DNA of 63,083 bases, the filler included, from Collodictyon triciliatum (lineage: Eukaryota), in NCBI GenBank assembly GCA_043381765.1. It is 6 parts of 6 records of this genome, joined end to end, with 100 filler letters (N's around TTAATTAATTAA, not from the genome) between each part and the next. Parts side by side here need not be neighbours in the genome. Positions count along the whole stretch, not along the records: positions 1 to 18,138 come from JBHJMP010000073.1; positions 18,239 to 28,477 come from JBHJMP010000074.1; positions 28,578 to 39,217 come from JBHJMP010000075.1; positions 39,318 to 56,664 come from JBHJMP010000079.1; 2 more parts are not named here. One strand, 5' to 3'. Position 1 is the first letter of the stretch, and every line of letters begins with the position of its first letter. The translations under genes and the position numbers were made by a program. Shown here in pieces: positions 10,708 through 53,779 of this stretch. The notes beneath the pieces were generated by a model. The model saw only the letters and a program-made list of their open reading frames with translations, had not been told where the DNA came from and searched no databases.

Positions 10708-10766
10708 CATACACAAAGTGGAACTTTGAATCGAATAAAGGGAAAAAAAAACATACACAAAGTGGA
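10708..10766 (+). mobile_element. Micro-retroposon-like insertion, family B, with perfect 15-bp direct repeats
   Basis: CATACACAAAGTGGA (10708-10722 and 10752-10766) flanks the 29-nt insert ACTTTGAATCGAATAAAGGG-A9. Confidence 0.7.
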
Positions 10767-11451
10767 CATGATCTCCTCTCCTCTTCTTTATTTTTTGTTT
10801 TGCTTTTTTCTTTGAGCGGCGCCTGAGTCTTATCAGCGACTTGCTCTCCTTTGGTTGTAGCAAAGAAGGCCACAAAAGAGCCAGGAGATGACAACAATAA
10901 TGATGTAAGAGAAAGAGACAAAGGAAATAATTATGTGCAGTAAGTGCGAGGTGANNNNNNNNNNNNNNNNNNNNNNNNNNNNNNNNNNNNNNNNNNNNNN
11001 NNNNNNNNNNNNNNNNNNNNNNNNNNNNNNNNNNNNNNNNNNNNNNNNNNNNNNNNNNNNNNNNNNNNNNNNNNNNNNNNNNNNNNNNNNNNNNNNNNNN
11101 NNNNNNNNNNNNNNNNNNNNNNNNNNNNNNNNNNNNNNNNNNNNNNNNNNNNNNNNNNNNNNNNNNNNNNNNNNNNNNNNNNNNNNNNNNNNNNNNNNNN
11201 NNNNNNNNNNNNNNNNNNNNNNNNNNNNNNNNNNNNNNNNNNNNNNNNNNNNNNNNNNNNNNNNNNNNNNNNNNNNNNNNNNNNNNNNNNNNNNNNNNNN
11301 NNNNNNNNNNNNNNNNNNNNNNNNNNNATAAAAGAATAAAAGAATAAAAGAATAAAAGAATAAAAGAATAAAAGAATAAAAAGGAAATGATAATGATTAT
11401 GCCCCTAGAGAAATAAGGGAGGAGATATCCAGCTAAAAAACCGCGCTCTAC

Positions 11452-50800: not shown

Positions 50801-53779
50801 GTTAACTGCAAATGTAATTTGATAGGTTCTGACCAACCAGTTTGAAATTATCACCGAGGAAGCGCAACCAGCGAAACTTAACATTAAGCAAGAAGGAAAT
50901 TTTTTCGATCCTGACAATGACCGTCTATTTCTGATTATGGTTTCCTCCAAAAACAAAGGCTCTATAGAGGAATGCAATGCATCAAAGGCTCTGGGTTTTG
51001 GAAAGAGTATACGACCGAATAGTTTTCATCCTACTCAAACATGGTGCATAGAATACCGTCCAACTTTTGATCCTGACCAAAGGTCTTATGGTGAAAATTT
51101 CGACGTTATCGAGTTTGTTGTTTCAGACGGCCTTTTCGAAAGTGACATTCGAGTATTTGTCCTTGTGCATGTGAAATATAAAAACTTTCCTCCTGCGGGC
51201 ATAAGCACTCTTCTCCAATACGAACGAATTTCTCGCTGTCGGTTAGACTTGATGCAATATGTGAACGACCATGAAAAGGATCCTGTACATATTATCATTC
51301 AAAGCAAACCCAGTGATGGTTCTCTGTATCACCAAGGAAATATAATTACTCAAGTTCCGTACTGGATTACCCCAGACATGGAATCATCTTTCGAGTTCGA
51401 ATTGGCCGAACCTGTGGATACATTGACGTCATTTGAGTACATTCTCCATGATGGGTTCTCTTTTTCGCAGGTCTATGATTTACAACTAAAGATTACGGGT
51501 TACCAAAATCGGGCTCCCGTGCTCAGCCTAATTTCCCGCCAGTATGTCCAAGTTGTCGAGGTTTTGCTTGTATTATCAGCATATAATGAAATTTTATTTT
51601 GAATATGTGTATCTATCTCGGCTTACTGTTTTTATGGGTTTTCAGTTCGCTTTTATTTTATTCTATTTTATTCTATTTTATTCTATTTTATTCTATTTTA
51701 TTCTATTTTATTCTATTTTATTCTATTTTATTCTATTTTATTCTATTTTATTCTATTTTATTCTATTTTATNNNNNNNNNNNNNNNNNNNNNNNNNNNNN
51801 NNNNNNNNNNNNNNNNNNNNNNNNNNNNNNNNNNNNNNNNNNNNNNNNNNNNNNNNNNNNNNNNNNNNNNNTATTATTATTATTATTATTATTATTATTA
51901 TTATTATTATTATTATTATTATTATTATTATTATTATTATTATTATTATTATTATTATTATTATATGTATTTGTTTTGTTTTGTTTTGTTTTGTTTTGTT
52001 TTGTTTTGTTTTGTTTTGTTTTGTTAAAAAAAAAAATTGAAAAGTCCATCTTCAGGGCAAGATAAATCATTTGGAATATAACAGCTATTCGTGAATCAAC
52101 CGCGTAAATTATGATATTCTCCCTTACCAAATCCACTGTTTATAGGACCAATGGTCTGTGATAACGCTCAAAGGTGCCGACTTGGATAATGACGCTTTGA
52201 ACCTGATTTTTTTCAAGTACCCAGAACATGGTAAATTACATCATGTCAGACCAGGTGACATTGCCGGACGCGCTATATTAGAGGGAGACAGCGTCATAGT
52301 CTCTTCGTCTCAAAATATTAGACTCATCTACCAACCAACAGAAGCAACAAGTAGGCAAGAAGATGCATTGGGTTTTCAACTAAGTGATGGCGAGGCTCTC
52401 TCTAATACTATTACCATCCGAATTTCCGTATTACCGAGTTTGAAACCTCCTTCTATTCAAGTCGACCCTATATCTGTGGTTGTGGATGAGAAAAAATCTG
52501 TGTGTATTACAATTAAAGTTACTGGTTTTCAAAGACCTTATATCCAAGAGCTTATGCACCTGGAAATAACTGTGCTACCCGATGTGGGTACCCTCTATAA
52601 GGTGGCCACATGTTCCCAAAGTAAGTACAATATCGGCATTCACTTATTACCGTGCATGTTTTGTTTTTCCCTTTATTTTACTCAAAGTTTCTGTTTTTTT
52701 TTTTAATAAAAAAAAATCAGTAATATATTAAAATGATGAAATTGAATAGAAACGTGATGTAAAAATATTTATCATATTATGGAAAAGTATGTAATAATTA
52801 GAATTCTAACCATCTGCCTTCTCGAGTAGCAGAAGCGTCAGAGACCGTAAACAAAGCTCTCACTGCAACACCGTCGAACGACAAGGCCTTAGATGTGGGT
52901 CTGAGTGACCATTGGAGATCGGATATTGGGACAGCAACGTGGTTCTTTGTATTTCAAGCCCCAAAATCTGCGCAACACAATCAAAAAACGTTTCTGTTTT
53001 TCCGGGCGATGGACTATCGGAATGCCGAGAGAATCCAGCCTATGACCACCCCAGAATCCATGATTCCAATCCAAATCTGCCACAAGAACCAAGCACCCAT
53101 CATCAGTACAGTGTCGGCAGAGACGGCTCCTTCCAAATCCTGCCCGATCCCCAGGGACATATACGATTCTGAATGTGTCTCTGTCAAACAGGTTGGTCTG
53201 CTTTTGATGGGTCACATCGACCTCCGTCTCGAAATCCGCGACCCTGAGACGACAGAAATGCAATCAATGAGGTGGATGTTTCGGCCAAGCATCGGGCGTA
53301 TATCCATCGACCAAGCAAGCTTCCCGGAGCTGACGGGCGGCATTACAGAGACCTATGACGGAGACTGGACGGTACTAGAGGGTTCCATGAGCGCGCTAAA
53401 CTGTGCACTGCGTCTGTCTCTTGTGTGGGCGCATCCGGCAGATTCACAACAAACTCCGGAGCTTGCGTCTCTTCGAAAACTATGGATAACATTGCGGGCA
53501 TCGGACTTTGGCAATGGAGGGAGCGGAGGCCCTATGGTGAGCGAGTGGGCTGACTGGCCGGTTTCTCTTTGCCCAGGTTCATTTGCGAGTGCAGAACCGG
53601 TTGTTGTGTCTGGCTTAGAAAAAGGTGTGAGTGATGATAGTGATGTTATCCGTGATGAAAGCGCGGAGGAGACTCTGAATCTCATCCCCGCCTCAAATGC
53701 ATCGAGTTTTTTAGTGTGTGCTCTTGTTGTGTTGGGTGTTGCCTTCTGGCTGAAGAGAAATACGATGCGTAATCTGTGA
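41821..53779 (+). CDS. Giant (~3,600 aa) type I membrane protein with tandem bacterial-type Ig/cadherin-like (Big_9/tandem-95-like) repeats
   Basis: Four exons join in frame at GT-AG sites: 41821-50484, 50826-51560, 52146-52620 and 52830-53779. There is an N-terminal hydrophobic segment (LHLWFVMACLFFIAAP). Motifs recur throughout, such as EEDNRAYINITASDSDNDPMTLTITSLPVRGKL, VLPVNDPPVA, NHAPVI and VEDQWSVITLKGADLDNDALNL...PEHGKL. The C-terminal TM FLVCALVVLGVAFWL is followed by a short basic tail. Confidence 0.8.

Follow-up and report, generated by a model that had tools for sequence, protein, structure and literature searches.

Short A-tailed inserts, most of them bounded by direct repeats, are scattered through a stretch of the Collodictyon triciliatum assembly GCA_043381765.1 (the window; 63,083 nt with filler, of which 59,357 are called bases) that comprises six scaffolds. 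The window is AT-rich (33% GC), dense in genes, rich in introns and filled with A-rich microsatellites, within which the majority of the non-linker gaps fall; the scaffolds are separated by fixed artificial linkers of 100 nt (44 N + 12-nt stop-codon spacer + 44 N) at 18139-18238, 28478-28577, 39218-39317, 56665-56764 and 60774-60873. Five inserts share a core of about 20 nt (family B, B1 to B5), two others share a different body (family A, A1 and A2) and an eighth consists of a tail only. The five family B copies reported in an initial annotation were all recovered at the same positions, with flanking repeats of 15/15, 16/16, 14/16, 13/16 and none:

10708..10766, + strand: B1, insert 10723-10751, with a 15/15 duplication, a 20-nt body (10723-10742) and an A9 tail
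14053..14103, + strand: B2, insert 14069-14087, with a 16/16 duplication, a 10-nt body (the 3' half of the core) and an interrupted A tail
19275..19346, - strand: B3, insert 19291-19330, with a 14/16 (12/14) duplication, a 33-nt body that includes a 5' extension, and an A6G tail
24454..24512, - strand: B4, insert 24470-24496, with a degenerate 13/16 duplication, a 19-nt body and an A6TA tail
52660..52688, - strand: B5, with a 20-nt body (52669-52688) matching B1 at 17/20 positions and an interrupted A tail
23768..23849, + strand: A1, with an 18/18 duplication, a 34-nt body and an A12 tail
18602..18674, - strand: A2, with a 13/15 duplication, a 35-nt body and an A8 tail
18664..18704, - strand: tail-only insert, with a 15/16 duplication around A8C and no body

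Family B is distributed over scaffolds 1, 2 and 4 of the six, and alignment of its copies revealed a common 3' end, variable 5' ends and tails of 7-9 nt with frequent interruptions. B1 and B4 begin at the identical base, which is not target-derived in either copy, and the similarity of B5 begins there too; B2 retains just 10 nt of the core, and B3 agrees with the other copies at only one of the first three core positions. No credible repeat flanks B5, the best candidate being an A-rich 11/13 match. CpG decay as the source of a G/A variant at core position 11 was neither supported nor excluded (CpG observed/expected ratio, 0.87). The bodies of A1 and A2 are 31/34 identical, and their starts differ by no more than 1 nt. 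When extra copies were sought by local alignment, tails were found only on B1, B3, B4, B5, A1 and A2, and the remaining matches were tailless. The target of the tail-only insert overlaps that of A2 with an offset of 4 nt, and the co-occurrence of these two inserts in one 181-nt intron with overlapping targets hints at a local insertion hotspot. Two microsatellite arrays (11328-11381 and 51654-51771) have units containing GAATAAAA, which resemble the 3' ends of the elements; both adjoin gaps and may be expanded tails, though the sequence is low in information.

In three exon searches the top matches were the EukProt transcriptome proteins P0004 (54%), P0124 (91%) and P0245 (82%), and named proteins came far behind; in the search with a helicase exon, the leading ones stood at 66% or less. 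Because two of the EukProt proteins align exon by exon, with about 60-100% identity in most exons, a close relative must have been sequenced already. Introns were called from GT-AG ends together with an open joined frame, and 17 of the 18 gaps mapped in two genes measure 50-320 nt. Three genes bear on these results:

2157-5961, - strand: DEAH helicase gene
6974-10680, - strand: intron-rich carotenoid-oxygenase-family gene (RPE65 family), with a probable start codon at 10678-10680, where the protein of the relative begins
41779-53779, + strand: giant cadherin/immunoglobulin (Ig)-like gene that includes, besides other exons, one open frame of 2910 codons (Pfam Ig_SibA, Cadherin_4 and Big_9)

Seven of the eight inserts lie inside probable introns, and the eighth, B1, is found upstream of the carotenoid-oxygenase-family gene, 28 nt from its probable start codon (10678-10680, - strand); since this start codon is implied by the protein of the relative, B1 is judged non-coding and antisense to the gene. 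B2 is antisense in a probable long intron (14013-14750) of a - strand gene, a call for which the open joined frame is the only basis, and B5 is antisense in a probable intron of the giant gene (52621-52829 or 52832). B3 and B4 are in sense orientation in probable introns of 113 nt (19238-19350) and 181 nt (24420-24600), A1 lies 5 nt inside a probable intron (23649-23854) of a - strand gene, and A2 occupies the intron 18532-18712 of a nucleotide-cyclase-like gene. Overall, four of the eight inserts are sense and four antisense to their host genes, and none lies within the 8.7-kb exon.

For B3, A1 and the tail-only insert, no more than 10 nt separates the duplication from a probable 5' splice site (19350, 23854 and 18712, respectively). 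On the opposite strand, both families (10723-10751, 23786-23831, 19291-19330 and 52660-52688) resemble a 3' splice site, with a T tract followed by AG, such that antisense copies could serve as cryptic acceptors. Introners are insertions that themselves make a whole new intron in coding sequence. This splice-site look, together with a seemingly open frame at B1, raised the idea of an intron-creating element, which we rejected: the protein of the relative starts 28 nt downstream of B1, and the remaining copies lie inside longer introns (7/8 inserts) rather than forming whole new ones.

Tails and flanking repeats compared with chance

In a scan blind to the core, every A-tail end in the window (221 sites) was examined to see whether the 14 nt that follow it recur 12-120 nt upstream. 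With two or fewer mismatches allowed, such repeats were present at 6 of the 221 sites compared with 0.05 expected from permuted flanks, and the six positive sites were B1 (counted twice), B2, B3, A1 and A2, that is, five distinct elements. With up to three mismatches the count was 7 against 1.4 expected, and since B4 was the only newcomer, its repeat taken alone is not above chance. The initial annotation had staked its reading on flanking repeats that exceed chance; in the window, with permuted flanks as the control, those of B1, B2 and B3 do so, that of B4 is weak and B5 has none. A whole-window repeat finder returned output swamped by microsatellites and gaps.

The core itself recurs beyond expectation. 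Allowing up to three mismatches, the 19-nt core was found at four sites, the query included, whereas local Markov shuffles averaged 0.027; none of 150 such shuffles reached three, and a second control gave five matches against 0.42; the fifth match (23026-23043) has neither tail nor repeat and was treated as chance. AATAAA[GT]G occurs at 23 sites, and at least 8 A in the 10 nt that follow it mark the five B copies and no others. The duplications are locus-specific, 14-18 bp long and without sequence in common, and their mismatches (0, 0, 0, 1, 2, 2 and 3 in the seven duplications) suggest insertions of mixed age.

These numbers bear on the interpretation that no retroposition took place and that the inserts are break-repair patches, local tandem duplications with filler, or assembly artefacts. 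A fragmented short-read draft with many A-rich microsatellites invites such suspicion, as do the weak repeats of B4 and B5. However, identical bodies occur at unrelated loci with the A tail always on the same side, the mismatches within the repeats are not something an assembler would create, and short direct repeats not tied to an A tail showed no excess over shuffles in the window. We thus regard this interpretation as very improbable.

Origin of the short inserts

That the inserts are real and were made by retroposition through target-primed reverse transcription is well supported, as the initial annotation had proposed. Their shared 3' ends, A tails, locus-specific 14-18-bp duplications and non-coding sites argue for the activity of a non-LTR enzyme (LTR, long terminal repeat), because this process is recognized by copies that end alike at the 3' side, carry an A tail and are flanked by a duplication that varies and is specific to each locus (bioRxiv 10.1101/2025.02.02.635956).

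For the template, we lean, with confidence somewhat above even, towards the extreme 3' tips of a non-LTR retroelement with a preferred stop point as the source of family B. The parent would be a poly(A)-ending long interspersed nuclear element (LINE) or a non-autonomous partner of one, with its long copies outside the window. Its enzyme would nick the target and prime DNA synthesis on the short A tail of the RNA, copying would span only 0-35 nt before the new strand joined the target, and a second nick 14-18 bp away would give rise to the duplication. The stops may not be fully random, as three of the five copies end at one point, near the arm-loop border of a possible hairpin. Family A would probably represent the tip of another element of this kind; the zero-length case would be the tail-only insert. 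Copies may have survived owing to their tiny size and their landing in introns or leaders, while longer copies were perhaps purged or lie in assembly gaps. Several precedents are compatible with this scheme: truncated LINE copies have a fixed 3' end and a variable 5' end, with many CR1 insertions under 50 bp inferred (PMC5389967); a poly(T)-only insertion has been interpreted as a severely truncated L1 or Alu (PMC3219598); a 3' stem-loop is the recognition signal for stringent LINEs (PMC4176376; PMC3747384); and host repair is able to cut LINE synthesis short (PMC2666801).

Of the two templates envisaged by the initial annotation, namely a 3' tip with a truncation hotspot and a leader or small RNA whose 5' end is fixed, the former is the better fit because of the length series (bodies of 10, 19, 20, 20 and 33 nt in family B and 0 in the tail-only insert), the tail-only insert itself and the hairpin-like extension of B3. 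The latter gained no positive support: Rfam and tRNA scans gave no match on any copy and a shared start is common under random truncation: in a geometric model with a mean of 15-30 nt, and with B5 left out, a start-sharing pair among four B copies has P = 0.26-0.47. The anticipated ladder of truncations exists in short form, but its upper end, a full-length element, was not found in the window.

The B3 extension contains one further feature:

19316..19325, - strand: possible 5' hairpin arm, matching the reverse complement of the 3'-most 10 nt (B1 10733-10742) at 9/10 positions

Only 0.47% of 3000 random 17-mers from the window reach this inverted match (P of about 0.005, with the stem length picked post hoc), and the point where B1, B4 and B5 all begin would lie near the arm-loop border of the hairpin. 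The extension therefore suggests a longer parent that may end in a hairpin.

Several observations weigh against a truncated tip, and they concern the fold, the lengths and the parent. The folding of all seven sequences examined was no better than that of shuffles, B1 and B5 offer a 5-bp stem with a 7-nt loop at merely -0.3 kcal/mol, and the fold of the B3 extension is equalled by 14% of random 17-mers. The case for a longer parent hangs on B3, a single old copy that deviates at two of the first three core positions; moreover, because extra 5' bases occur in about 40% of genomic ZfL2-2 copies (PMC2666801), its extension could be filler. The seven duplication-bounded bodies are all 35 nt or shorter, which requires truncation at about 30 nt or less on average (P = 0.009 for a 50-nt mean), and so means of 50 nt or more are ruled out unless long copies have been lost; truncated LINEs are quoted at 100-1000 bp, far above these inserts (PMC3747384). 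Start-sharing in families A and B together is unlikely under random truncation (P = 0.013-0.046). A six-frame motif scan of the window for reverse transcriptase returned seven short matches, none in a credible element, and none of 36 open reading frames in the window matched a reverse transcriptase family in Pfam. Among 59 repeat pairs of 131-1500 nt, in a scan made without a shuffle control, no longer tailed element was convincing.

Loss of long copies from view is plausible, because long LINE copies are purged more strongly (PMC5389967) and the gaps of a short-read draft keep long repeats out of sight. In the window, longer copies could be concealed by four gaps of 373-766 nt, no element end was seen in the gap flanks, and six of the 59 long repeat pairs have an A- or T-rich inner end.

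An alternative interpretation is that the templates are discrete short A-tailed RNAs (about 20 nt in family B and about 35 nt in family A) with a fixed 5' end, which would stem from a master locus or a hairpin cut and be copied in trans by a non-LTR enzyme; B2 would then be truncated, and B3 would carry filler or a fold-back. We hold this to be possible but doubtful. Consistent with it are the identical starts of B1 and B4, the similarity of B5 from the same point, the starts of A1 and A2 within 1 nt, the joint P value given above under geometric truncation and the absence of any body above 35 nt; recurrent breakpoints in loops are also described in RNA-derived retrocopies (PMC5322556). A fixed 5' end is thus modestly supported. 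However, no Rfam match was obtained at the gathering threshold and an Rfam search of 18550-24600 at E <= 10 gave one chance match, away from every copy; the shared start is not significant for family B alone; a fixed length is broken by B2, B3 and the tail-only insert; and the bodies are too short for an internal promoter, with short interspersed nuclear element (SINE) families measuring 75-662 nt (PMC3531059). In its strongest form, which we put forward more tentatively still, the lineage would retropose discrete A-tailed RNA species of 20 nt and 35 nt, each with a fixed 5' end, as promoterless micro-retroposons, at roughly 100 per megabase; these RNAs would perhaps be excised from the 3' hairpin in a retroelement RNA that is still enzyme-bound.

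The AATAAA hexamer adjoins the tail in both families, and two apparently unrelated bodies were mobilized alike: a relationship between families A and B by way of a common motif was rejected, as 192 of 2774 random 35-mers score equally well. Both facts would suit copies that are the 3' ends of two abundant cellular transcripts, that is, short processed pseudogenes caught by a relaxed, poly(A)-recognizing enzyme. Such an enzyme, however, should sample many RNAs, whereas six of the seven bounded inserts belong to two families and the seventh is bodiless. The hexamer, moreover, is merely 0-3 nt from the tail, closer than is usual for cleavage and polyadenylation. This origin is unlikely.

Least probable of all is an origin of the core as the exon of a spliced leader or as part of a small RNA already known. 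Spliced leaders of about 20 nt ending in AG exist, and the core is near this length with AAG at positions 16-18; however, GT, which together with an Sm site follows the exon in an SL RNA gene, comes after the AAG in no copy in the window, B4 lacks the AAG altogether, it is not obvious where a leader fused straight to an A tail would come from, Rfam offers no match and the full core was absent from the papers listed by an exact-string search. A literature search for a leader combined with a retroposon, extending to titles and the beginnings of abstracts, returned no such case.

Comparison with described retroposons

The elements behave as expected of non-LTR retroposition. With truncated non-LTR copies such as Anolis CR1 insertions under 50 bp (PMC5389967), they share an intact common 3' end, a variable 5' end, dispersal and very short length, but here all copies are 35 nt or shorter, 5' ends are clustered, A tails and 14-18-bp duplications are present, and no parent was found in the window. 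The bare A tail between duplications at 18664-18704 resembles a poly(A)/poly(T)-only insertion in NF1 (PMC3219598), although tails measure 7-12 nt here and 60-178 nt there. L1-type machinery, as invoked in the initial annotation, is not borne out: duplications start at C/CATAC in B1 and T/GTTCA in B2, the two perfect B copies, and are A-rich only in B3, the tail-only insert and partly B4, so that the best-kept B copies, lacking an initial A run, do not conform to the L1 target consensus (TT/AAAA-type; PMC5322556; PMC3219598).

The possible terminal hairpin before the B3 tail recalls the stringent LINE and SINE tails of ZfL2-1 and ZfL2-2 (PMC4176376; PMC3747384), but here the hairpin comes from one copy, its folding is not significant and no matching enzyme was recognized in the window. 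Like SINEs (SINEBase; PMC3531059), the inserts are short, dispersed, non-coding, A-tailed and duplication-flanked, yet they span 10-35 nt instead of 75-662 nt, a length at which a head derived from tRNA, 5S or 7SL is impossible; classification as SINEs under the SINEBase definition (at least 60% identity to tRNA, 5S or 7SL over at least 60 nt) was therefore rejected, given bodies of 35 nt or less. Tailless and small-RNA retropseudogenes (PMC5322556) are likewise very short retrocopies with duplications and recurrent loop breakpoints, but as described there they keep the 5' end of a known RNA and have a cut 3' end and no tail, whereas in the present inserts it is the 3' end and tail that persist, and no known RNA matches them; this class was ruled out, as all copies are A-tailed and without an RNA family match. 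An engineered 46-nt Alu domain that is active (PMC12199147) is the smallest such unit we found described. Literature searches on tiny SINEs or tail-only insertions yielded nothing relevant, and an exact-string search, in which a paper containing the full core should have come top, showed no such paper among the matches listed (all of them owed to the linker spacer), although supplements could hold element sequences.

On the favoured reading of truncated 3' tips, the copies would be traces left by a non-LTR element that is active, or was until recently, in a little-known protist, in which the 20-nt core offers a handle for finding the parent element and the inserts a source of presence/absence markers. 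The initial annotation called the element high-copy, which extrapolates from five copies in 59,357 called bases. Eight inserts in the same span, at about 25-65 bp each, would make a real contribution to intron size. If 5' ends proved fixed genome-wide, these would be the smallest retroposons we found described and would allow the cause of stops in target-primed reverse transcription to be tested directly. Were discrete RNAs the templates, the inserts would be micro-retroposons well below the 75-nt SINE floor; routine repeat annotation would miss them because of their size, and they would steadily lengthen introns and seed A-rich microsatellites.

Other genes in the window

Two further genes were noted:

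39911-40872, - strand: DHDPS-family aldolase gene
about 56960-60160, + strand: CLC-type channel gene (by eye only)

The nearest named relatives of the carotenoid-oxygenase-family gene (6974-10680) are cyanobacterial, at about 58-64% over the tested exon. The giant gene at 41779-53779 combines bacterial-type repeats with a long open frame, though the genome is otherwise intron-rich.

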